From an uncultured candidatus Porisulfidus sp. (GTDB taxonomy: Bacteria; Pseudomonadota; Gammaproteobacteria; Poriferisulfidales; Poriferisulfidaceae): 64,000 bases of DNA. Under the pieces are notes generated by a model. It did no database searches. It was given only the letters and a program-made list of their open reading frames with translations, and was not told the origin of the DNA. Made by a program: the position numbers and the translations under genes. Numbering within the stretch: position 1 is the first letter of the stretch; each line of letters opens with the position of its first letter. Positions 1-59,523 of this stretch are shown one piece after another. The stretch covers positions 416,001-480,000 of the forward strand of contig OZ220480.1 in NCBI GenBank assembly GCA_965116025.1. The letters are read 5' to 3'.

Positions 1-152
1 CGTCGCCCCAGCCGCGATGCAGAGCGGCCACCCCCGAGCCCTTCGCGTGGATGAAGCCTTCGTTGGTGACCGTGATATCAGTCTCGTCAGTAGAATTGAC
101 CACATTAGTGAACACGCCGTGTCCGCCAACCGGAGTCCCCGCGGTCCCGATC
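1..152. repeat. Near-identical direct repeat of 55778-55929, shared by the two autotransporter genes
   Basis: Manual alignment: first 77 nt identical, 5 mismatches in 152 nt. Confidence 0.9.
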
Positions 153-1710
153 ATCGCTCCCTCGGATACCGTCACCCGGATCGCTCCCCCGTAGATTTGC
201 TGCTGGACGAGCACGCCATGCCGACCCACGGTCGGCTCGTCTCCCTCCACGCCGATCCGCGCCCCGGACTTCAGCGTCACCTCAATGCCGCTGGGTTTCA
301 CGACGGCCGCCGGTTTGGTCGGTCGGAACCGATACGCATGGATGCCATCGCCACCTTCGCCAGCTGTGCCCGTCCGGGTGATCGCGCCCGCCAGATCCAC
401 CTTGACGAGACCCCCGTTATGCTCATGATGAATTTTGATCCCGTGGCCGTTCAATCCGCCCCCCATGAGGCTCCCTCCCGTCACGTTGATCGTGACCGGA
501 ACCACGGAATCGTCGTCCCCTTTCGTCGTGACTCGAATGCCTTCCGTCCACCAATAGGGCGCGACGCCCGGGTCCGTCACGACCTCGATGTCGCCGCTCG
601 ACGTGATCGAGACCTCGCTGCTGGCCTGCCCGTCCGCGGCCGGAGCGCTCTTGTCCTCGTGAAACACGTGAATCCCGGCGCGCGCGTACGCGCTTCGAGT
701 TTCCACATGCCCGCTCTCCGTCGGATTCGCCATTTTCAGATAGCGGAGCGGATGGCTCTGAACCACGATCTTGCCCTCATGGACGATCGTGATGTCACCG
801 CCGCCAGAAGACGAGCCCGGGGCTATCCAAACATCCCTAAGCCAGCGCTCTTCCAGACCCTCGTCCTGGAGATTCCCCGCCGACGCCCGGATCCCTTGCG
901 AGGTCACGCTATTCTTCGCCGTCTTGATCACGGTGTCGCCCCCGCCCGAGCGATGCGCCAGTATCCCGGCATACGTCCCGTAAATCTCGCCCGCGTTCGT
1001 CACGCTGATGTCCGTGTCATGCTGAAAGTACGCTAGAACGCCGTACCCGCCCATCGGTTTGTCCTCGGTTCCGATCCGCGCCTCGTCTCCCACCATCACC
1101 TCGGCGCGGTCCTTCTGAGCGTCGGCGTCGCTTCCCAAGTGCTTCACGTAGACGCCGTGGTTGAGCCCCGCCCCGCGGTCCCTCGAATCAATGGCCTTCC
1201 CGATGCGCGTGACCGTCGTGGACAGCCCCGTCACGAGCCTCCGGGTCGCCCCGCTCTCAATGCGGACCCGCCCATCGAGAACGACTTTCTTCAGGGCGCC
1301 GGGCCCGCTCAGGACGATCCCCGGCCGAGCGTCGCTCGCGCCACTGGGTATTCCACTGGACGTGATGGTGACCGTGCCCGCCCCGGAAGGCTGGACCGTC
1401 AGCGTCACGCTCCGGCCTGGCGCGGCGAGATCGTATCCGATCGGCGGGCCGTCGGCCTTGGTGTAGGTCGGGTCGTCGCAAGTGACTTCGGCGGCGCCCG
1501 AGCCGCTGGGAAGGTCGCCGCAGTTTCCCGTGTCCGCCGCCATGGCGGAGTGCGGAATCAGCGGAATGGAGAGAACGGCCGTCAATCCGGCCAGAACGGT
1601 CAGGAAACGGAGGCTATGCCCCCCCCCCCCCCCCCCCCCCCTACGCGGGAAGACGACGAGGCGACGCGAAACGCGGCGCGAATCTCGGAAACGGACAGGT
1701 TCTTGGTCAT
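1..1710 (-). CDS. Autotransporter (type V) passenger-domain protein, 5' part, runs off the left edge; frameshifted at a G23 tract in the signal peptide (putative phase-variable, OFF as sequenced)
   Basis: ATG at 1710 after AAGGGA RBS gives MTKNLSVSEIRAAFRVASSSSRV-polyG. After the tract, the frame starting at 1618 reads HSLRFLTVLAGLTAVLSIPLIPHSAMA|ADTGNCGD... (signal peptide) and appears open to position 1 (spot-checked), where it reads ...HRGWGD, identical to the autotransporter at 53967-57378. The frames join with G21 or G24, not G23. Confidence 0.8.
1619..1641 (-). repeat. Homopolymer G23 (C23 on +) inside the autotransporter signal-peptide coding region
   Basis: Direct count: gctatg-C23-tacgcggga. 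Confidence 0.9.
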
Positions 1711-1750: not shown

Positions 1751-1829
1751 ATTATACCCCCAGCGCCCGCGCGCTTCCAAACCAAAATAATCGCGCCGAA
1801 TCGCCACCGCCGAGCGCGCCCTGTATAAT
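1751..1829. promoter_or_regulatory. Divergent sigma70-type -10 boxes (autotransporter on -, tRNA-Phe on +)
   Basis: TATAAT on the - strand at 1751-1756 and on the + strand at 1824-1829, each followed by GC-rich sequence; -35 boxes not clear. Confidence 0.45.
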
Positions 1830-13472: not shown

Positions 13473-13757
13473 ATGAAAAAATCTCCTTCTCTGGCATCCA
13501 GCCTGATCGCGCTGGCCCTGGGCTCCGGCCTCGCCTCCACCTCCGCGCTGGCGGTTCCCGACGCTCCCAAGAACTGGGAGAAATGCGCTGGCGTCTCCAA
13601 GGCGGGCATGAACGATTGCGGCGCGACGGATGGCGCGCACGGTTGCGCTGGAGCTGCTCCGGAAGACGGCATGGAAACGGAATGGATCTACGTCCCGGAA
13701 GGCACCTGCGAGAAAATCGTGGGCGGGTCGGTGTACGCGACCAAACCCGCGAAGTAA
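13473..13757 (+). CDS. DUF2282 / BufA1-type bufferin precursor (signal peptide, 4 Cys)
   Basis: Sec signal ending ALA, then [15 protein letters not shown]...HGCAG...[16 protein letters not shown], the DUF2282 signature. Confidence 0.9.
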
Positions 13758-13767
13758 GTCTCGCTTG

Positions 13768-14607
13768 ATGCCACCGGGCGCGAATCGGACGACCTCGCTC
13801 GCGGGAATGGGGGTCGGCTTGCGCGGCCCCCATGTCCCGGATATCTTGCGGCAAAGTCCCGCTGTTCCTTGGTTCGAGCTGCTGACCGACAATCACTTGC
13901 GCGACGGGGGCGCGCTCCGGTTCCAAGCCGAGGCGGTCGCGGAACGATACCCCGTGGCTCTGCACGGCGTCAACCTGTCACTCGGCGGCATCGACCCGCT
14001 GGATCATGAATATCTGGGTCAGGTCCGGGACCTCGCCCACCGCGTCGATGCCCGCCACGTCTCCGAGCATCTGGCCTTCGCAGCCTGCCAAGGCATCCAC
14101 AGCCACGACCTGCTGCCATTGCCATGGACGGAAGAAGCGCTGGGACATGTGGCGGACCGGATTTCGAACGCCCAGGATTTCCTCGGCCAAACCATCTTGG
14201 TCGAGAACATCTCCACCTATCTGGAGTACCAGCATTCCACTATGACCGAAGCCGACTTCTTGCGAGAGCTTTGCGCGCGAACCGACTGCGGGCTGCTTCT
14301 GGATATCAATAACGTCTACGTCAACTCAGTCAACCACGACCATGACCCGCGAGACCTGTTGGACTCCATTCCCTGGGCCCGGGTCCGCGAGGTTCATTTG
14401 GCGGGCCACGAGGAGCGCGACGGGCTCCTGGTCGATACGCATGGAGGACCCGTCAGCGATGACGTGCTGAATCTGTTTCTGGACGTGGCCCCCAAAATCC
14501 CGGAGGTTCCCGCGCTGTTCGAATGGGACACTTCTCTGCCCGCATGGCCCGTCGTCTGGCAGGAAGCCCAACGGCTTGACGAGGCCTTCCGGGCCGCGCG
14601 CGCGTGA
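13768..14607 (+). CDS. DUF692 multinuclear non-heme iron oxidase (MNIO, BufB-like)
   Basis: GVGLRGPH, WFELLTDN, HGVNLSLGG, VSEHL, DLLPLP, LVENIS, LLLDINNVYVN, EVHLAGH, VDTHG, FEWD. Confidence 0.93.
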   Translation: MPPGANRTTSLAGMGVGLRGPHVPDILRQSPAVPWFELLTDNHLRDGGALRFQAEAVAERYPVALHGVNLSLGGIDPLDHEYLGQVRDLAHRVDARHVSEHLAFAACQGIHSHDLLPLPWTEEALGHVADRISNAQDFLGQTILVENISTYLEYQHSTMTEADFLRELCARTDCGLLLDINNVYVNSVNHDHDPRDLLDSIPWARVREVHLAGHEERDGLLVDTHGGPVSDDVLNLFLDVAPKIPEVPALFEWDTSLPAWPVVWQEAQRLDEAFRAARA

Positions 14608-16849: not shown

Positions 16850-18022
16850 TCAGCCCATAAAGTCGAAGTCAGACTCCGTCAGATCTGAAACGTCGAAATT
16901 CTCAAGCGTGATCGTCCAGTCCGGATTAGGGTCTCTCACGTTCGGACCCGCCGCCGCCTCGCCAGGCTTCGGCTGGTAATACTCTTGAATGATCGTGTGC
17001 TTGCCGTCTTGACGGATATCCAAATCATCCTTCGAGTCGATCCCATCCATCACGATTTGGATTTTGTCATTGCCGGACTTCTTGAAGTCTAGGATGTCAT
17101 CGTGTCCGACCAGCTCTGTAAGGGTGTAAACAAAAGTGTCATCGCCACTTCCGCCAACCATATCGTCATCGCCCTTGCCGCCTTCTATAGTGTCATCGCC
17201 CGCGCCACCGTTTATAAGATCGATGCCGTCCCCCCCGCGCAACGTGTCGTCGCCCGCGCCGCCAGCGATCCCGTCGTCGCCCGCGCCGCCGTCCATAATG
17301 TCGTCGCCATCATTACCGGACATAGTGTCATCGCCGGCGCCACCGTCCATAGTGTCGTCGCCCTTGCCGCCATGTATCTCGTCATCGCCATCGCCTCCCT
17401 TCAGCGTGTCGTCGCCGCCCCCGCCGTATATAGTGTCAACGCCTTTGCCGCCGTCAATCGTGTCGTTTCCTTCGGCGCCATTTTGGCTTTCGCCTTCGGG
17501 AGTCAGCTTCGGGTTGGAGCCGTCCGCGAGCGTGTCGCCGTACAGCTCGTCGTTGCCATCGCCTCCCTTGATCGTGTCATCGCCCGACCCTCCGCGTATC
17601 GTGTCCACGCCCTCGCCGCCAGTGATCACGTCATTTCCTTCATCGCCGTTCATCGTGTTCCCGTCACCGCCACCGGTCATCGTGTCCACACCCTCGCCGC
17701 CGGCCATCGTGTTATAGCCAGCGCCACCTTCCATCGTGTCGTTGCCCGCTCCACCTTCCATATAGTCGTCGCCATCGCCACCGCGCAACGTGTCGTTGCC
17801 ATCACCGCCGAATAGGTCATCGTCACCCGCGCCGCCGAACAGACGATCGTTGCCCCCTTCCCCATATAGCGAGTCATTGCCCAAGAACCCGTATATCCAG
17901 TCGTTTTGATCGTCTTTCCCCTTCAGATTCCCAGCACCAGAACGATAGTTATCGGGGTCACCTGGACCGTAATAGTCTTCAAAATCGGACTCGGGGGTAC
18001 CTTCAGTTTTTTCTCTAGCCAT
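16850..18022 (-). CDS. RTX/hemolysin-type Ca2+-binding repeat protein (putative T1SS substrate)
   Basis: More than 20 GGxGxDxL/I/M nonapeptides; acidic; no Sec signal; C-terminus ...DILDF...[22 protein letters not shown]. Confidence 0.9.
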
Positions 18023-25121: not shown

Positions 25122-27758
25122 ATGTACGGTTTGACCCTGTTCCGGGACTTAAAAGAAGCCACCATCTCGTGGCGCGAAAATGGCTACCCTTGCGAGGACC
25201 ACCCCTACATCAGCTTCATTCTTTCGCACCAAACCAGAGATGCGCGAGAAACCCTCAAGGAGGACGAGGCCATTGAGTTGAAGTACCTGCGCGAGCCGCA
25301 GTTTCTAGCCCTGGAGATTTATTGGTATGTTCGATTGATCCTGAAAACCCCCAAGATCGTGGATTTGTACAAGCATTTTTACGGGAACGACAAAAGCGAA
25401 TTCTTCGACGCCATCGGACTCCCCTTGTCGCCAGACGCCTTCGACTACGCTACCATTGACCAGGTCATGGAAAAGGTCAAGCATGACCAGGAGTTCGTGA
25501 AAAGAAAAAGAGCGGACGCGCTACATGAATCAATTCGCCTGGAATATCCGAGCTACATTCTGGCCTTGGCTATGGGAGCGGGAAAGACCGTTCTGATCGG
25601 AACGATAATCTCGACGGAATTCGCTATGTCGATCCGGTATCCTGACAGCGAAATCAAATTCATGAGAAACGCCCTCGTCTTCGCCCCGGGCACGACCATC
25701 ATCGAAAGCCTGCGAGAGCTCAGCGACTTGGCATACGAAGAGATATTGCCGCCGGACGCACGGCGAGACTTTCTCGCGAACCTGAAAATCGAATACCCTG
25801 GAAAGGGAAAGGATATCCAAATCCAGGCCGGTAGCTCCTACAACTTGATCGTCACCAATACCGAGAAGATCAGCCTGCGGGCCAAAACGAGAAAGAATCG
25901 GACGGATTTCGAACGCGACCAAGTGCTCGCGAATCTTCGGCTCCAGAAAATCGCGAGCCTGCCAAATCTCGGAGTGTTCTCGGATGAGGCGCACCACACT
26001 TTCGGAAACGCTTTCGAGAAAATCAAGAGAGTTCGAGAAACCATCGATTACATCAATGACCATGGCGCGCCGATCGTGGCGGTCGTGAACACGACCGGGA
26101 CCCCGTACTACAAAAAGAAACCGCTAGTAGAAGTGATCGCATGGTATGGACTCGGAGAGGGAATCAAGGACAACATCCTCAAGTCTCTGACGAATGGAAT
26201 CCACCGGTATGACATGAGAAACGAGCCCGAAGAGACCGTGATCAACGATATCGTGCGCGAATTCTTCAAGACCTACGGGGACGTGACTCTTCCCGACGGT
26301 GCCAAAGCGAAGATCGCCTTTTACTTCAAGACGCAAGAGCATTTGGAAACGTCCAAGAATTTTATCGAGAAGGCGATGACGGAAATCGGGGAAAGCGTCT
26401 CCCAAATACTGGTCAACACGCAGAAATCTGACAGCTGGCAGCTGGACGCCTTCCGGCGCCTCAATGACCCTGGTAGCCTAATGCGGGTGATTCTTCTTAT
26501 TGGGAAGGGGGTCGAGGGCTGGAATTGCCCCAGCCTGTTCGCCTGCGCCCTGATCAAGCCGCAAACCAGCAAGACCTATGTGCTGCAGGCTTCCACGCGG
26601 TGCTTGCGGCAAGTACCCGGAAATTCGCTCCCGGCGAAGATCTTTTTGGATCACCAGAACTCCGGCATCCTCAATCAGCAACTCCGGGACAGTTTCTCCA
26701 CTGACCTGACAGACCTTATGCTTGGAGCGAGCCAGAAGAAACACGTCGTCTTGCGCATCAGGAAGCCCGATCTACCAAAACTAGAAATCACCAGGAAAGT
26801 CAGAAAAGCCGTAAGAACACGCGAATCAAGCGCGCCCATCCATCTGGCGAGACCGAAATCCAAAGCTCCTCCCACGGTGCTTCGAAACATATTGACCCCC
26901 GCGTTCAGCAGCTCGTTCGATTTGCTCATGCCCACCGGCGAGACGAAAAAACTTGTCGTGGCGGAAAAATCCACGGATCGCTACACCGTCGCCAGAAGAA
27001 TCGCTTCCAGATACCATCTCCCCCTTCTGCAAGTCCTGCAAAGCTTGAGAAAACTCTATCCCAAGGGAACGATTCCGAATGGTCACCTGTATGGACTGCA
27101 TAAGCAGGCCGAGCGGCAACAAGCGAACTATGAAATCGTTGAGGAGGATGTGACCGAGGTGATGGCGCTGATCCGGATTCAGGACGAGAACGGCAACAAT
27201 TTATTCGAGACGGAAGCGGACGACGATGGCGGTAGCGTTTACGTTCACCGGCTACGCATGTTGCGGCGCACTTATGAAAGAATGGAGCAGCTCGACCTTT
27301 TTCAGGATGCGGCGACATGCGCGGATCGTCACGACCTGAGCTATCACTACGTCCCGTACAATTTCGATAGCGGGCCGGAAAGCTCTTTGTTCAAGCAGAC
27401 CCTGTCCGCGCTCAACGCCGACCCTCGCGATGTCGAAGCTTTTCTTTTTACCGGGGGCCTGACGAATCCGAGCATGACCGACTTTCACTTTGAGTACATG
27501 GGGGAAAACGGGCAATACCACCGCTACTTCCCTGATTTCGTGGTGGTCAAAAAGAAAACCCGGGAGTTTTACGTCGTCGAGGTCAAGTCTGAGCGCGATC
27601 GCGAAAACCCTACCGTTGAAGCGAAGAAAAAGGCTGTGGAACGATTGCGGAACATGCAGCCAGAGAAGTTCAAGTATCACATCGTCTACACTGGCGAGGG
27701 AGAGGTTCCACCTAACGAGATTCAACATATTCTGGACTGGGCAGAATCACGGCGATGA
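25122..27758 (+). CDS. Type III restriction enzyme Res subunit (SF2 helicase plus PD-(D/E)xK nuclease)
   Basis: AMGAGKT (Walker A), DEAHH, TGTP, EGWNCP, QASTRCLRQ, C-terminal YFPDFVV...VVEVKS. Confidence 0.9.
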   Translation: MYGLTLFRDLKEATISWRENGYPCEDHPYISFILSHQTRDARETLKEDEAIELKYLREPQFLALEIYWYVRLILKTPKIVDLYKHFYGNDKSEFFDAIGLPLSPDAFDYATIDQVMEKVKHDQEFVKRKRADALHESIRLEYPSYILALAMGAGKTVLIGTIISTEFAMSIRYPDSEIKFMRNALVFAPGTTIIESLRELSDLAYEEILPPDARRDFLANLKIEYPGKGKDIQIQAGSSYNLIVTNTEKISLRAKTRKNRTDFERDQVLANLRLQKIASLPNLGVFSDEAHHTFGNAFEKIKRVRETIDYINDHGAPIVAVVNTTGTPYYKKKPLVEVIAWYGLGEGIKDNILKSLTNGIHRYDMRNEPEETVINDIVREFFKTYGDVTLPDGAKAKIAFYFKTQEHLETSKNFIEKAMTEIGESVSQILVNTQKSDSWQLDAFRRLNDPGSLMRVILLIGKGVEGWNCPSLFACALIKPQTSKTYVLQASTRCLRQVPGNSLPAKIFLDHQNSGILNQQLRDSFSTDLTDLMLGASQKKHVVLRIRKPDLPKLEITRKVRKAVRTRESSAPIHLARPKSKAPPTVLRNILTPAFSSSFDLLMPTGETKKLVVAEKSTDRYTVARRIASRYHLPLLQVLQSLRKLYPKGTIPNGHLYGLHKQAERQQANYEIVEEDVTEVMALIRIQDENGNNLFETEADDDGGSVYVHRLRMLRRTYERMEQLDLFQDAATCADRHDLSYHYVPYNFDSGPESSLFKQTLSALNADPRDVEAFLFTGGLTNPSMTDFHFEYMGENGQYHRYFPDFVVVKKKTREFYVVEVKSERDRENPTVEAKKKAVERLRNMQPEKFKYHIVYTGEGEVPPNEIQHILDWAESRR

Positions 27759-29512
27759 GCGAGAAAGCGATCAAGATACGGCCTATCAAAGGGCGCGCCA
27801 TGCTTTCCTGGGTCGGAAAAAAGGTCTTGGATTCCGTTCGGTATTTTCCTCCTCAACTATGCGAAAGCGTCGGAGTGAAGACCCCACCCGCCGAACCTTC
27901 TTACAAAGAGTTTGAGCGTGGGGGATTCAATCTGCTTTTTCACGGAGACAACAAGGAGACGCTATCCTCTCTCATCAACCTTGGATTCCGGGCAAAAGTC
28001 GACTTGATCTACATCGATCCTCCCTTCGATTCTGGCGCTGACTACGTCAGGAAAATCAAACTGCGTGGCACGAAGCGCGTTTATAGCGGAAAACTTGACG
28101 GAGCGGAACACACGGCGATAGAGCAGGCGCAGTACGAGGACATCTGGGCGAACGACAACTACCTTCAGTTCATGTACGAGCGCTTGATTTTGATGCGAGA
28201 GTTGCTGAGCGATCAAGGAAGCATCTATCTGCATTGCGACGAGCACAAGGGACATCAATTGCGTCTTTTGCTGGACGAGGTTTTTGGAGAGGAAAACTTC
28301 AAGCGGGAAATCGTCTGGGACATAACGGTTCTATCCGGCTTCAAGACAAAGGCCCGCAACTGGATTCGCGGACATGACACGATCCTTTTCTACACGAAAG
28401 GCCAGAGCCAGAAATGGAATTCCCCCAGGATTCCGCACGATCAGAAATACTTGGCTCGTTTTGACCAGATAGATGAGGATGGCCGAAGGTATTTCGGGGG
28501 CAGAGGCCCGCGCCGATATCTGGATGAAGTCAAATCGAGGGGCAAGGCGGTCGGAGACGTATGGTCGGACATTATGTCCTTTCAGCAACAACCAACTTCC
28601 ACGGAAAATGGGCAATATCCCACGCAAAAGCCAGAGAAGCTGTTAGAGCGAATCATTCAAGCGTCCAGCGACGAGGGATCCATAGTTTTGGATTGCTTCT
28701 GCGGCTCCGGGACGACGGCCGCCGTGGCGGAAAAACTTAATCGCCGCTGGATCATGGCGGATCTCAACAAGGGCGCCATCCAAACCACCGTCAAAAGACT
28801 GCAGAAGGCGCATGCGGAAAATGAGGGCGGCAAGTTGATTCATTACCGCGTCAACAACTATGACGCCACGAAGCAAAACGCTCTAAAGAAAGTCATTATC
28901 GCGAAATACGGCATCCAGTCAGATCGCAAGGATCTGTTTTTTGATGGCACGGTGGGCGGGCAACTGGCCAAGATCGTGGAGCTGGACAAGCCATTGACCG
29001 TTTTGGATATCCAAAACATCAAAGAGGAAATTCGGAGCAATAGGCCAGAGGACACTCGGAACGTGGTCGTTTTCTGCAACGGGTCAGAAATAGAAACGCT
29101 GGAAGCTCTGGAAAAAGAGAAAAGCCCAATTAACCGGATCGTCGCTCTCGATATTCAGCGAGACTCGGTGTTCACGAATCAACCCGCGGAAGCGGAAGTT
29201 GAGGTACGCAAAGCCGGGAAGCGCGTCCAAATTGAAATCTCGGACTACATCAGCCCGACCATCCTCGCTCGATTGGACGTTGACCGAACACTGCTTGATG
29301 AGCAAATAGACGATTTTCGAGCGCAAATCGATTATGTGCTGATCGACACGGATTACCGCGAAGAATATTTCCAAATAATGGAAAGCGATGTGCCACGCGC
29401 GAAGAGCGATTTGATTAAAGGCGCATATGACCTGCCTCTGCCTCGAGCCAACGCGACCGTGGCCGTGAAAATCGTGGATATGGTCGGAGAGGAAGTCCTA
29501 GTCGTGAAATAG
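27755..29512 (+). CDS. Type III R-M Mod subunit (beta-class N6-adenine methyltransferase)
   Basis: LIYIDPPFDSGADY, YPTQKPEKLLERII, VLDCFCGSGTT; ATGA overlap with Res. Confidence 0.92.
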   Translation: MSEKAIKIRPIKGRAMLSWVGKKVLDSVRYFPPQLCESVGVKTPPAEPSYKEFERGGFNLLFHGDNKETLSSLINLGFRAKVDLIYIDPPFDSGADYVRKIKLRGTKRVYSGKLDGAEHTAIEQAQYEDIWANDNYLQFMYERLILMRELLSDQGSIYLHCDEHKGHQLRLLLDEVFGEENFKREIVWDITVLSGFKTKARNWIRGHDTILFYTKGQSQKWNSPRIPHDQKYLARFDQIDEDGRRYFGGRGPRRYLDEVKSRGKAVGDVWSDIMSFQQQPTSTENGQYPTQKPEKLLERIIQASSDEGSIVLDCFCGSGTTAAVAEKLNRRWIMADLNKGAIQTTVKRLQKAHAENEGGKLIHYRVNNYDATKQNALKKVIIAKYGIQSDRKDLFFDGTVGGQLAKIVELDKPLTVLDIQNIKEEIRSNRPEDTRNVVVFCNGSEIETLEALEKEKSPINRIVALDIQRDSVFTNQPAEAEVEVRKAGKRVQIEISDYISPTILARLDVDRTLLDEQIDDFRAQIDYVLIDTDYREEYFQIMESDVPRAKSDLIKGAYDLPLPRANATVAVKIVDMVGEEVLVVK

Positions 29513-53966: not shown

Positions 53967-56900
53967 TCAGAAGCGAACCTTCAGCAGGGCGCCCACGCCG
54001 TAATCGTGATTGTCACCGCCCGACACCGCGTAGTGCGCCTCCCCCGATAGCGTCGACTCTCCCTTCGCGTCCAGCGTCATCACGCCCCCAACGCCAATCC
54101 GCACCCACGTGGACTCCGCCTCCGAGCGCAAGCGCGACCCCGACGCCATCACGGCGCGATCCTCCGAAAACTCATGCTCCACGTCCAAAGAGGCATACGT
54201 CTGGCCATTTTCCAGCAATGCCCCGATCCGCGCGCGCACGCTGTCCTCGGAGCGGAACGACACCTGACCGCTCCCATCGACACCCGAAACGTCGTCGAAG
54301 CCGTCAATGTCCGCCCAAGTCCACGTCAATCCCCCGCGCGGAACCAGCGCGAAGCCGTCCATCTCCATGCGCCTGCCGACCTCCACGCCGATCGCGTGAC
54401 CCTCTCCGTCCAGACCGGACGCCACCATCCCTCGCGCGTCCGAACTCAAATCAATGTCCTCGAAACGCGTGTACGAGAACTCCCCGTCCGCGTACCAGCC
54501 GTCCTCACCCCGCCAGGTCGCCGACGCCCCAACGCCCACGCCCGAGACCTCGATCTTCCCGCCACGCGCGACATCCGCCTCGCCGTCACGGTAGTGCGCG
54601 CTCACGCCCAGCGTCAGCCCCGGCGCGTCCGTGGGAACGACGAAGCCCGTCTCCACGCCCCAGCGCTCGAAGTCCCATGACAGATCATGTCCGGCCGTGT
54701 CCATGGAAGTCGTGGACATATCCGCCTCGCGCTCGCCATCGCTCGCCATGACCCGCGCCCAAACGCCCTCGCCGTCCCGCGTCGCCGACAAGCGCGCCTG
54801 GCGACCGCCCGGCGCGCTCATCTCCAGCAGCACCGACGGTAACGCCTCGTACACCCGCGCTCGGTCGTGATACGCCCGACCCGACTCCTCGAACTGGTGC
54901 CCGCCCTCGATCGTCTTCAGGGTGACTCTGGAGACGTCGTGCACGCCGCGCGTCTCGACGCCCGGGCTGAGCGCGTACTCCCCGCCCACCTTCACCCCAT
55001 CGAAGGTCGTCGTTCCACTGTTGAGCATCTTCCCTTTGACGTCGCCAATGCGTCCGACCGCGTCCTTCTTCATGGTGATGGTCAGCCTCCCGTCCGACCT
55101 CACCGCGGTTCCGGATGCCGCCTCCACCTTCGCCTTCGGCCCAACCACCAGCGTTCCGCCATTCACCATCCGAACGCCGGCGTGGTCTCCGCCGCCGCCC
55201 ATTACCTTGCCGTTGATCGTGACCGTCTGGTCATATTGCCCTTTCCGGGCGTGGTCGGACGCGAAGGTCCGCATCCCCTTGACGTGCACTCCGTCCTTCT
55301 TGGCCTTCACCGTCGCCATCTCCCCCACCGTGACCTCAATCTTCCCGGCTTTCGGCGCGTCCTCGTCCTCGTAGGTGGTGGCCGTCTCCGCGTAAACCCC
55401 GTGACCGTCCGCCATGATCGTTCCGCCAGCCACGTCGATCTTGATCGGAACGATCGTCTCGACGCCCTGTATCCCCTCCGCGTCGTTCAAGTCTTTCACA
55501 TAGGCGAGAATGCCGTCGCCCTTCGACGTGACGCTCCCTTTCGACGTGATCTCGATCTTCCCGATCTTGGCCTCGTAGGTGGAGGGGGCTTGAGAGTCGA
55601 CCGCCGTCTCGTCGGAAGCCGCTTGGGGCTCCGAGCCCCCATGAATGGCGAGAATGCCGGCGGTCCTGCCTTTCAGGTCCGCCAATTTCGTCTTTTCAGA
55701 ATCCACTAAAGTGTTCAACTTTAGTATGTCAGGCGCGTCGCCCGCGACGATCTCGCCCATCGAATGCGTCACGACCACGTCGCCCCAGCCGCGATGCAGA
55801 GCGGCCACCCCCGAGCCCTTCGCGTGGATGAAGCCTTCGTTGGTGACCGTGATAGCAGCCTCGTCAGTAGAATTGACCACATTAGTGAACACACCGTGTC
55901 CGCCAACTGGCGTCCCCGCGGTCCCGATCCTCGCCCCCTCGGAGATGGTCACCATGATCGTCCCACCGTGGGCTATATGGTGGATCGCCACGCCGTGCCG
56001 ACCTATGGTCGGCTCATCTCCATCCATTCCGATGCGCGCAGCGGGCTTCAGCGTCACCTTGGTGTCCCGATTGACCGGATCATCCGGATCAGTCTCTGAG
56101 TCCCGGTAGACGTAGATCCCGTCCCCCAAGGTCGCCGTCGAGGCGATCTCGCCCGCGAGGTCCACCTTGATAAGACCACCGATATGGTGCCGGGTATCAA
56201 CGCGAATCCCAGAATCCCCGCTCGTCTTCAAAACGCCCCCCGTCACGTCGACCGTCACCGGAATGATCGTATTCCCTTTTTCTCCGGTCGTTTCGACGGA
56301 AATGCCACGCCGGCGAGCGGTGATGTCGCCGCTCGAGGTGATCGTGATCGCGCTGGCGGTAGCCGGGGTCGTGTCCTTGTGGATGACCGTTATGCCATCG
56401 AAGGTGAACTCATTGGTGGTGCTATCAAAAAGCGTGGCCACCTTGCCGTTTGCCCCGTCCGTGAGCGTCGCCGCGTAGAGAGGCCGCTGCCTCTTGGTGA
56501 CGAGCGTCCCGTGGTTCGTGATGGCGATGTCGCCTCCTTTCCTGGAATTCACGTAGATTCCCTTGCTGGTCACGCTGTTTTTCGCCGTCTCGACGGTGAC
56601 ACCCCCGGCTCCCTTGTGCTCCACATGAATTCCCCGGTAATACCCGTAGATCTCGCCCCGGTTCACGATGGACACGTCGCCCTGAGCGGAAACGTTACTG
56701 TAATGCGCCATCACGCCCGTCCGGCCCACCGGAACTTCCTCAGTTCCGATCCTCGTCTCGGCCCCGACCACGATCTCGATCTTGTCCGCTCTGTTGGCGT
56801 CGCCGGCTTGGTCGTTCCTGACAACGATCCCGTAATTTCTGCTACCCCGATTATATTGGGGTTCGATGAAGGTCGCGCTGAGCCCAGCAGTGGTATACGT

Positions 56901-57378
56901 GGCCTGGACGGGCGAAGTCCACCCACCGGCCTCGTTCGCGATCCGCACCTTGCTTTCCAGATGGACCGTCAGCGCCCCGGCGCCGATCACGGCGATCCCG
57001 GAATTCCGGCCCTGGGTGATATCGGTGGGAGAGGTGGCGGGATTCTCGGGAGGAAGGAACGACTTGATGGTCGTCATCTCTCCCGAAGGCCTCACGGTCA
57101 GCGTCAGGCCCCCCGTCTCACCCGTGTACTCGATGGGAGTGGGAGTGGCGCTGGTGCCGCCGTAGGCCGCGTCGCTACAAGTGACCGCGTTGGAGGAGGT
57201 GGGCGCGCCGCACTCCTCCCCCGCCTCGGCGGAGGACGGAATCAGAGGAACGGAAAGAACGGCCGTGAAGCCGGCCAGAACGGTCAGGAAACGGGGGCTA
57301 TGCCCCCCCCCCCCCCCCTAGGCGGGAAAACGCTGAAGCGTCGCGAGCAGTATTGGAAATGGTAGAAACCTTCTTCAT
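53967..57378 (-). CDS. Autotransporter (type Va) with beta-helical passenger and C-terminal beta-barrel; frameshifted at a G16 tract in the signal peptide (putative phase-variable, OFF as sequenced)
   Basis: ATG 57378 after AGAGGA RBS: MKKVSTISNTARDASAFSRL-polyG. From 57302 the frame HSPRFLTVLAGFTAVLSVPLIPSSAEA|GEEC... is continuous with the 1042-aa ORF, which ends RARVYEALP...VWARV...YGVGALLKVRF. In frame only with G15 or G18. Confidence 0.88.
57303..57318 (-). repeat. Homopolymer G16 (C16 on +) inside the autotransporter signal-peptide coding region
   Basis: Direct count: gctatg-C16-taggcggga. Confidence 0.9.
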
Positions 57379-57469
57379 TAGAATCGTCCTCTTGACGAAG
57401 TTGAAAAACCACGCGCGATTGTAATGCGACTCTGCCATGAAAGCAACTTCGACATCACCCGAGGTCCTC

Positions 57470-57504
57470 AAAAGGAGAAGGGCCTCGAAAAACGAGGCCC
57501 TTCT
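57470..57504 (-). terminator. Intrinsic terminator of groESL
   Basis: Perfect 12-bp stem AGAAGGGCCTCG/CGAGGCCCTTCT with a 5-nt loop, followed by CCTTTT on the - strand. Confidence 0.8.
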
Positions 57505-57527
57505 GTCGATAGCGCCGTCGAGCGCGA

Positions 57528-59523
<1,996 letters not shown>

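Follow-up and report, generated by a model that had tools for sequence, protein, structure and literature searches.

Background

Two described systems come closest to the locus treated here. The Opa genes of Neisseria carry CTCTT repeats in the region coding for the leader peptide, and one account attributes the diversity of their products largely to recombination between loci of the same isolate (PMC3960869). For the chlamydial PmpG proteins, poly-G/C tracts of 8-24 bp are described together with frameshifted copies showing no further damage, and a combinatorial display has been proposed (PMC6740158). The locus considered in this work lies in a stretch of 64,000 nucleotides (nt) from an uncultured candidatus Porisulfidus sp. 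(positions 416,001 to 480,000 of the forward strand of contig OZ220480.1, assembly GCA_965116025.1; hereafter the window, whose own positions are used as coordinates unless marked genome) and consists of an autotransporter gene, copy B, with a run of 16 G inside the region encoding its signal peptide. A second such gene, copy A, is found in the same window, and the genome as a whole holds 24 of them. It seems probable that these tracts undergo slipped-strand phase variation and that the paralogs, which would also recombine with one another, form a bank of contingency loci.

The leader cassette of copies A and B

The features of copy B, and the neighbouring groEL, are given below, those of the promoter and of the Shine-Dalgarno-like sequence being predicted functions.

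57418..57423, minus strand: TACAAT, a -10-like hexamer about 45 nt upstream of the ATG
57384..57390, minus strand: AGGACGA, Shine-Dalgarno-like, 5 nt before the ATG and about 28 nt past TACAAT
57378-57376, minus strand: ATG
57319..57378, minus strand: first leader segment, the ATG and 19 codons (MKKVSTISNTARDASAFSRL), ending ...TTTTCCCGCCTA; N-region of an extended signal peptide
57303..57318, minus strand: G16 homopolymer, the proposed slipped-strand switch, inside the leader
57298..57300, minus strand: TAG stop of the G16 frame (GCA TAG), cutting the product to 26 amino acids (aa)
57271..57302, minus strand: CATAGCCCCCGTTTCCTGACCGTTCTGGCCGG, the cassette's conserved 3' half; its ON frame encodes HSPRFLTVLAG, and its two OFF frames contain TAG and TGA
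57222..57302, minus strand: remainder of the ON-frame signal peptide (HSPRFLTVLAGFTAVLSVPLIPSSAEA), with a positive residue, a hydrophobic core and A-E-A
53967..57302, minus strand: intact reading frame after the tract, 1111 codons and a stop, comprising signal-peptide core, passenger and barrel (genome 469967-473302)
55023..57221, minus strand: passenger domain, modelled as a right-handed parallel beta-helix, with a Cys pair at the mature N-terminus (ECG...VTC)
54069..54764, minus strand: autotransporter beta-domain (translocator barrel), residues 847-1078, PF03797 (E 1.1e-27, 97.9 bits against a cut-off of 26)
57528-59174: groEL (PF00118)

The first leader segment follows a peptide pattern common to the paralogs, M.K..S.S.I.RAALRGASSSSR(I/V). 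Beyond the run, inspection by eye finds a positively charged residue, then a hydrophobic segment, FLTVLAGFTAVLSVPLIP, and finally SSAEA with a putative A-x-A cleavage site, after which the mature N-terminus (GEECGAPTSSNAVTC) would begin; the structure model presented further on has a helix at residues 3-16, in the predicted signal-peptide region.

The initial annotation had reported a -10 box about 40 nt upstream in both window copies. The hexamers do exist, TACAAT in copy B and TATAAT in copy A, both at about 45 nt, and most of the 24 paralogs have an analogous TATAAT or TACAAT upstream. A complete promoter could not be called in copy B, where the -35 element is weak (TTGCTT, 3 of 6 positions by eye) and the consensus promoter scan listed no full sigma-70 site. 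By eye, a hairpin with a tail of T's can be made out right after groEL, at about 57470-57503, although the consensus scan did not list it; it suggests that copy B is transcribed from a start of its own.

Copy A, of which the window holds only the 5' part, is organised in the same order.

1751-1756, minus strand: TATAAT, about 45 nt upstream of the ATG
1642..1710, minus strand: leader segment, MTKNLSVSEIRAAFRVASSSSRV, with the ATG at 1710-1708
1619..1641, minus strand: G23 tract, OFF, with a TGA 19 nt after the tract
1..1618, minus strand: 5' part of the reading frame; the gene continues beyond the window, the whole frame (1166 codons) occupying genome 414121-417618

Its upstream and start region reads GGGACGAATAATG, and on the minus strand the elements follow one another as ...TCTTCCCGCGTA, G23, CATAGCCTCCGTTTCCTGACCGTTCTGGCCGG, ...HSAMA and then ADTGNCGDLPSGSGAAEVTC. 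A leader architecture shared by the two copies had been proposed from the start, and all of its elements (GGACGA, ATG, poly-G, CATAGCC flank, A-x-A and Cys pair) are indeed present in both. Runs of ten or more G occur in the window in copies A and B only, where they give 21 overlapping G10 matches against a mean of 0.61 in shuffled versions of the window, none of 100 shuffles having reached 21.

Tract length and reading frame

With its 16 G, copy B is read from the ATG through five GGG codons to GCA and TAG, which leaves the gene OFF. The TAG stop and the OFF consequence had been correctly predicted, the junction having been misread as GGGGGA-TAG. The length predicted for a tract of G15 or G18, about 1,136 aa, agrees with the computed ON product of 20 + 5 or 6 + 1111 codons, or 1136 or 1137 aa, in which the run would be read as poly-Gly. 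From the tract to the hydrophobic core, copy B has no in-frame ATG, GTG or TTG, the next listed start being 69 codons downstream, and the secreted product must therefore begin upstream of the tract.

Counted from the conserved upstream ATG, 4/24 copies are in frame (G24, G21, G21, and G17 with an extra A before the tract) and 20/24 are out of frame. The OFF copies stop at the TAG located 5 nt past the run (7/20) or at the TGA located 18-19 nt past it (11/20), except for two copies with a variant cassette, in which the stop comes 124 and 262 nt past the run. The 3' half of the cassette is thus built such that one frame starts the signal-peptide core and both others meet a stop (18/20 OFF copies stop within 19 nt). 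In the ON copies, the signal peptide is about 55-60 residues long, and the run contributes 5-8 glycines to its N-region. This poly-Gly would be removed with the signal peptide and, since the tract lies inside the cleaved leader, in-frame length variants should yield an identical mature protein. Contingency loci have a mutable repeat so placed that a change in its length shifts the reading frame or the promoter spacing; here the repeat lies 60 nt after the ATG, and it is the reading frame that would shift.

A family of 24 paralogs

The genome is a single contig of 2,018,984 bp with 62.7% G+C. The search of this genome for further cassettes, which the initial annotation had called for, extends the family beyond the two window copies: 22 copies are recovered by a strict pattern and 24 by a looser scan, together making up 80.5 kb of 2,019 kb, or about 4% of the genome. 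PF03797 is present in 24/24 paralogs, and the frame following the tract stays open for 889-1166 codons in 24/24. Eleven distinct tract lengths, from 16 to 27, are found among them (G23 in eight copies, G22 in four, G17 in three, G21 in two, and 16, 19, 20, 24, 25, 26 and 27 in one each).

Pairwise protein identity within the family ranges from 58 to 90% (median 67%), being 45-59% in the first two thirds of the passenger and 83-94% in the barrel region. At the nucleotide level, the 24 copies have an ungapped pairwise identity of 0.71-0.82 in the interval from -40 to +40 about the run, which drops to about 0.4 by +100 and is at the random level (0.26) beyond -80. The run is the most conserved spot of the 5' region although its length varies.

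None of the 20 OFF copies has another stop or frameshift. The ratio of non-synonymous to synonymous substitution rates (dN/dS) was calculated by the Nei-Gojobori method for all 276 pairs, of which 190 are OFF-OFF and 6 ON-ON, and over all pairs its median is 0.57 in the passenger against 0.33 in the C-terminal part. For the OFF-OFF pairs, the medians of these two regions are 0.572 and 0.320, compared to 0.598 and 0.290, respectively, for ON-ON pairs. As the ratios of OFF copies equal those of ON copies, the OFF copies are not decaying and have been kept as coding sequence. These comparisons (24 paralogs, 4 ON and 20 OFF, under equal constraint) support the predicted dispersed autotransporter family in which each poly-G tract would act as an independent switch.

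A 25th paralog (genome 508081-510720, minus strand) is shorter, about 876 aa, and has no G run; it reads KEGASRPS where P0028, a relative from outside this genome, reads KEGGGGGGGGGAMPS. Could it be a natural, constitutive version of these proteins? A barrel-only fragment is also found at genome 885911-886279. A replication-strand bias was considered as a property of the tracts and rejected in favour of gene orientation, 22/24 family genes being co-directional with replication against 9/21 for the other tracts of the genome (a tally made by hand, not by script, with the origin and terminus derived from skew).

Mosaicism among the paralogs

The nearest paralog of each gene was determined in 300-nt steps along the codon alignment (24 steps). 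Over these, each gene has between 4 and 14 different nearest paralogs. Identical runs of 142-576 nt link paralogs that are 74-92% identical overall, the longest of them (576 nt) being found between two paralogs 92% identical. Copy B is itself a good example, as it is 98% identical to the paralog at genome 1261154 near its N-terminus, 87-96% identical to copy A in its middle, and 99% identical to the paralog at genome 1003940 near its C-terminus. Synonymous divergence (dS) is 0.31 in the leader and 0.36 in the C-terminal part including the barrel, with 0.74 in the passenger.

When the 200 nt upstream of the tract are compared to the 200 nt downstream, the nearest paralog is the same in 0/24 genes; between adjacent 200-nt segments inside the gene, it is the same in 7-13/24. 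There is thus a hint that promoter and leader relationships are uncoupled from passenger relationships among the 24 paralogs, and no more than a hint that the cassette is where exchanges end, since the upstream segments are short, 65-87% identical and noisy. The G run and its flanks might be a 5' recombination anchor, or even an initiator, for passenger exchange, in which case a single module would drive both ON/OFF switching and mosaicism. The shortest run able to fold a three-tetrad G-quadruplex, as at the gonococcal pilE G-quadruplex, is 15, and the minimum length of long runs in this genome is also 15. We regard such a role as rather doubtful, and ordinary homologous recombination within the conserved leader would lead to an identical pattern.

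The encoded autotransporter

Copy B is a classical (type Va) autotransporter, as shown by its PF03797 domain, with a passenger that is a beta-helix according to its structure model. Pfam finds no family in copy B besides PF03797, and PF03797 alone is matched in the four in-frame full-length proteins of the family, with no match to ESPR (PF13018) at E <= 0.01. Chlam_PMP repeats are likewise absent from all 24 paralogs in a Pfam scan at E <= 0.001, in which PF03797 alone was reported. Three residues at the mature N-terminus, C31, G32 and C42, are invariant in alignment A1.

The structure was modelled with AlphaFold2 from the 24-paralog alignment. The mean predicted local distance difference test (pLDDT) score is 61.8, with values mostly between 80 and 97 over residues 100 to 750 approximately and a poorly modelled barrel (about 25). 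A Foldseek search of this model against the PDB gives no match at E <= 0.001, its weak top rows being beta-helix proteins that include Fap2, pertactin and Ag43. With VIA-align, the modelled protein is predicted to resemble most closely the polysaccharide lyase RbmB (Z 23.4, root-mean-square deviation (rmsd) 3.8, 314 residues aligned), followed by phage tailspikes (Z about 20), the passenger of Bordetella Vag8 (Z 18.7, rmsd 4.1 over 386 residues) and UpaB (Z 15.2, rmsd 5.1 over 370 residues), all of them right-handed parallel beta-helices. A sequence search of the PDB with alignment A1 gave 0 matches.

Relatives outside this genome

Only three full-length relatives from outside this genome were found among 5.8 billion proteins searched, namely P0024 (55% identity), P0027 (48%) and P0028 (42%), each the single member of its cluster. 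They have, respectively, GGGGGGG, GGGGGGGG and GGGGGGGGG directly before the hydrophobic core, i.e. Gly7, Gly8 and Gly9 at the equivalent leader position. Of the more distant cluster representatives, 5/146 have five or more consecutive Gly or Pro in their leader, a count that would miss OFF copies. A profile search of 52 other genomes of the order recovered no member of the family at E <= 1e-40, and within the genus only distant autotransporters were found (best E 1.4e-33). Peptide patterns derived from A1 hit 78 stretches in a one-genome-per-species collection, and those derived from A2 hit 45 stretches in metagenome contigs, none of which was confirmed in either set, from which the genome studied here may have been omitted.

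Long runs are nevertheless a feature of the whole genus, runs of G12 or longer occurring in 16/16 of its genomes. Among the congener autotransporter genes with a readable 5' end, 7/8 carry C12-C23 (coding sense) just before the signal-peptide core (one gene each in G003, G006, G009, G011 and G015, and two in G013); the eighth, in G012, has a G12 upstream of its frame, and a ninth gene is cut by the end of its contig. In G011, a C14 lies directly after ATGCCATTG and is out of frame, a multiple of 3 being needed. The congener leaders (L054, L056, L042 and L112-L115) read poly-C as poly-Pro, as opposed to the poly-G read as poly-Gly here, and the mature N-termini of congener and family proteins have a common (E/N)CG...C motif despite very low overall similarity. 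The idea that the position of the tract is conserved while the passengers have diverged, already present in the initial annotation, therefore gains from both the Gly7-9 of the three outside homologs and the poly-C of 7/8 congener genes. Nor do homologs turn out to lack the tract, the shorter paralog without a G run set apart.

One congener assembly has a contig (L077, G005:C20) with 50 consecutive G at its end. Short-read assemblies of this genus break at long runs, and tract counts from draft genomes are therefore underestimates. Gene callers give P0011 and P0024 false long N-termini, which start in another frame upstream of the -10 box, and database entries of the family thereby hide the OFF state.

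Long G/C runs elsewhere in the genome

G/C runs in this genome have a bimodal length distribution: 45 measure 15-39 nt and a few measure 7-8 nt, whereas lengths of 9-14 nt are absent. C39 (genome 97045) and C30 (genome 90005) exceed all others; A and T runs reach at most 10. As many as 21/45 long runs lie outside the autotransporter family, and include the following.

genome 11481 (L084): Type ISP restriction-modification (R-M) enzyme, with the run 18 nt into the gene
genome 154914 (L087): Eco57I-like enzyme, with the run inside
genome 605518 (L090): N6_N4 methylase run
genome 1038751 (L097): N6 DNA methylase, which the run divides into 567 + 212 codons
genome 87005-100083 (L085): locus of GT1 and GT2 glycosyltransferases, with three runs within 7 kb (C30, G16 and C39)
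genome 385736, 1154002, 1747365, 1839275, 1986077 and 137569 (L088, L098, L100, L101, L102 and L086): six large FN3-repeat proteins of >990 aa, extending beyond the loci
genome 789208-789222: promoter spacer TTGACA-G15-TATACT, 50 nt upstream of an RTX-repeat protein
genome 772596-772615: promoter spacer TTGACAA-G20-TATAAT
a long run at an ABC/HlyD junction

The R-M and methylase genes with runs are candidates for phase-variable methylation of the phasevarion kind, and the glycosyltransferase locus is probably a switchable surface-glycan locus. In the FN3 genes, poly-C of 18-29 nt (coding sense) stands at the 5' end or immediately ahead of it, and five of the six have a common flank, CCATATA-Gn-C on the opposite strand; by these features they are a second family predicted to be switchable. 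The spacers of the two promoters are 15 and 21 nt long, both off the 17-nt optimum, which suggests that transcriptional phase variation could occur there. Gene classes such as these make up the phase-variable repertoires described for Neisseria, Haemophilus and Campylobacter (PMC5953494, PMC6321876). The 21 other runs, found in gene classes typical of phase variation, are as far as their sequence can tell a classic phasome.

Other genes of the window encode an MNIO-family bufferin maturase at 13630-14607 (plus strand; 323 bits, the cut-off being 310), a protein with RTX calcium-binding repeats at 16850-18022 (minus strand), and a pair formed of a restriction endonuclease and an adenine methyltransferase at 25122-29512 (plus strand); no long homopolymer is found in any of them. 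The window also includes BamB-Der-HisS, Mpl, AnmK and HemL, which suggest a beta- or gamma-proteobacterium.

Proposed mechanism

Each of the 24 paralogs would have its own promoter and an extended signal peptide with a long poly-G run in the middle of its N-region. When DNA is replicated or repaired, slipped-strand mispairing would alter the run by one or more G in either direction. A length divisible by 3 would be translated into a harmless poly-Gly, cleaved off with the leader, and the beta-helix passenger would be exported and displayed (ON); the other two length classes would run into the TAG 5 nt or the TGA 18-19 nt past the run and give only a peptide of 26-38 aa (OFF). With paralogs switching singly, a clonal population would show changing combinations of diverged passengers. 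Recombination between paralogs would in addition reshuffle passenger segments, the conserved leader cassette and the barrel serving as homologous ends. Within this scheme, we infer the high rate of length change, the dependence of expression on frame, the role as surface adhesin or antigen, the promoter and the cleavage site.

Evidence against and alternative explanations

A number of observations weigh against such switching. The public sequencing evidence consists of three runs from one study in the form of assembled contigs, which carry no per-read length spread; the stretch is covered by numerous short contigs, some of which stem from paralogs or other strains, and none spans it whole. In one of these runs (X2), a contig stops exactly at the tract edge (57303) and is uninformative as to length. 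Consensus lengths of 16-39 nt in a single-contig assembly may be off by at least one base, which makes the count of 4 ON and 20 OFF copies a soft one, and the exact G23 shared by 8/24 copies is either a real mode or a consensus effect. The ON share is below one third, not significantly so (P(<=4 of 24) = 0.059). Loss of mismatch repair as the cause of instability is ruled out, MutS and MutL being intact and scoring above their cut-offs, and the high instability of repair-deficient Campylobacter or Helicobacter cannot be assumed here. The 25th paralog indicates that the tract is not obligatory for the family. Finally, a search of 40 relatives for the DNA pattern of the cassette, with as many as 3 mismatches allowed, gave no match, and a degenerate version of it hit 0 stretches in the one-genome-per-species collection, which may omit the genome studied here.

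Slippage of RNA polymerase, or of the ribosome on poly-GGG, is an unlikely alternative, under which mixed frames would be produced everywhere, DNA length would count for little, and the tract would act as a leaky attenuator with a constant fraction of expression. Tracts far in excess of the RNA-DNA hybrid length, in a genome without runs of 9-14 nt, are what this explanation would call for, as are 20/24 copies that are out of frame in the consensus and yet constrained like the ON copies. Transcriptional slippage on homopolymers is established in bacteria, A and T runs being those dealt with in PMC1088944 and PMC5009743. At the lengths seen here, it could also blur the frame encoded in the DNA, which is a further point against a clean DNA switch. 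However, slippage is less efficient on G/C runs than on A/T runs, it cannot act at the tracts located in promoter spacers, and the conserved stops in both wrong frames, like the gene classes of the phasome, fit a switch in the DNA.

Two alternatives remain. In the first, which we find very unlikely, they are real but stable, ON and OFF states arise from consensus error, and the genes are constitutive autotransporters with a poly-Gly leader; homopolymers of such length are indeed hard to call, G23 recurs in 8/24 copies, and the outside homologs were called as proteins reading through the Gly run. Against this, a 759-nt contig of run X1 (possibly the source sample) covers 57265-58023 with 0 differences, including 38 letters on the short side of the run, and exactly reproduces G16, an OFF length, which is hence not an assembly slip in the X1 data. 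Stable tracts would also sit poorly with lengths of 16 to 27 among paralogs whose flanks are 71-82% identical, with a congener tract that is out of frame too (C14 in G011), with the stops kept by the cassette in both wrong frames, and with similar runs in promoter spacers and R-M genes. In the second, the 20 out-of-frame copies would be dead pseudogenes of a family decaying in a reduced genome. The small genome (2.02 Mb) and the 20/24 copies out of frame would agree with this, but no second stop or frameshift occurs over 889-1166 codons in any of the 20, dN/dS is the same for OFF-OFF as for ON-ON pairs and, in the barrel region, lies far under 1 (0.32), and recent exchange between OFF and ON copies is visible, all of which make decay extremely improbable.

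Implications

If the tracts do switch by slipped-strand mispairing, a bacterium of 2 Mb spends about 4% of its genome on 24 switchable and recombining beta-helix surface proteins. Such a repertoire, taken with the roughly 21 other poly-G/C loci, would point to a strong and changing selection on the surface, be it by a host immune system, phages or grazers. One cassette with 24 reporters would make a natural system for homopolymers of 15-39 nt in a repair-proficient cell, and could serve to study frame switching combined with recombination between paralogs. There is also a warning for annotation, as gene callers will label 20 of these genes pseudogenes or give them false upstream starts (e.g. 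P0011).

Comparison with known systems

The Neisseria Opa system, as far as the account cited at the outset describes it, resembles the present family in having its repeat in the cleaved signal-peptide region, such that in-frame variants give an identical mature protein, and in consisting of several paralogous loci that switch singly; here there are 24 loci with strong mosaicism, and single switching is a prediction. It differs in that its repeat is a pentanucleotide rather than a homopolymer of 16-27 nt, and the sequences are unrelated. Opa proteins are also small 8-stranded barrels, as opposed to the autotransporters of about 1130 aa with a beta-helix passenger found here.

Chlamydial PmpG is, like the present family, a paralogous autotransporter family with poly-G or poly-C tracts (PMC6740158). 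The same account places the tracts of the expanded group inside the passenger, some 500-1900 nt from the gene end, with a tract near the start only in the single-copy C. trachomatis-type (PMC6740158). Here, in contrast, 24/24 tracts occupy one conserved position in the leader, both wrong frames meet a stop, and the genes sit amid beta/gamma-proteobacterial gene content and encode proteins without Chlam_PMP repeats.

Other type Va autotransporters are described as switched by repeats in their coding sequence, among them NalP and MspA/AusI of Neisseria, Lav of Haemophilus and CapA-like proteins of Campylobacter (PMC3723659, PMC9022572, PMC7168839). These are represented by one or a few genes per genome, unlike the 24 paralogs, or about 4% of the genome, seen here. 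Their tracts are also shorter. The signal peptide of about 55-60 residues, with an additional conserved N-terminal segment before the n-h-c regions, recalls ESPR (PF13018), from which it differs by the absence of any PF13018 match and by its poly-Gly insert, which is not an ESPR feature.

The family would resemble both Opa and PmpG in its way of working and is a member of neither. The initial annotation knew of no description of this leader cassette, and a literature search made without the name of the organism found none either. What is new is the gene family itself, with a passenger that has no Pfam family or PDB sequence relative, the cassette with stops in both wrong frames, the 24-copy size and the regime of run lengths; the class of mechanism is well known, indeed textbook.

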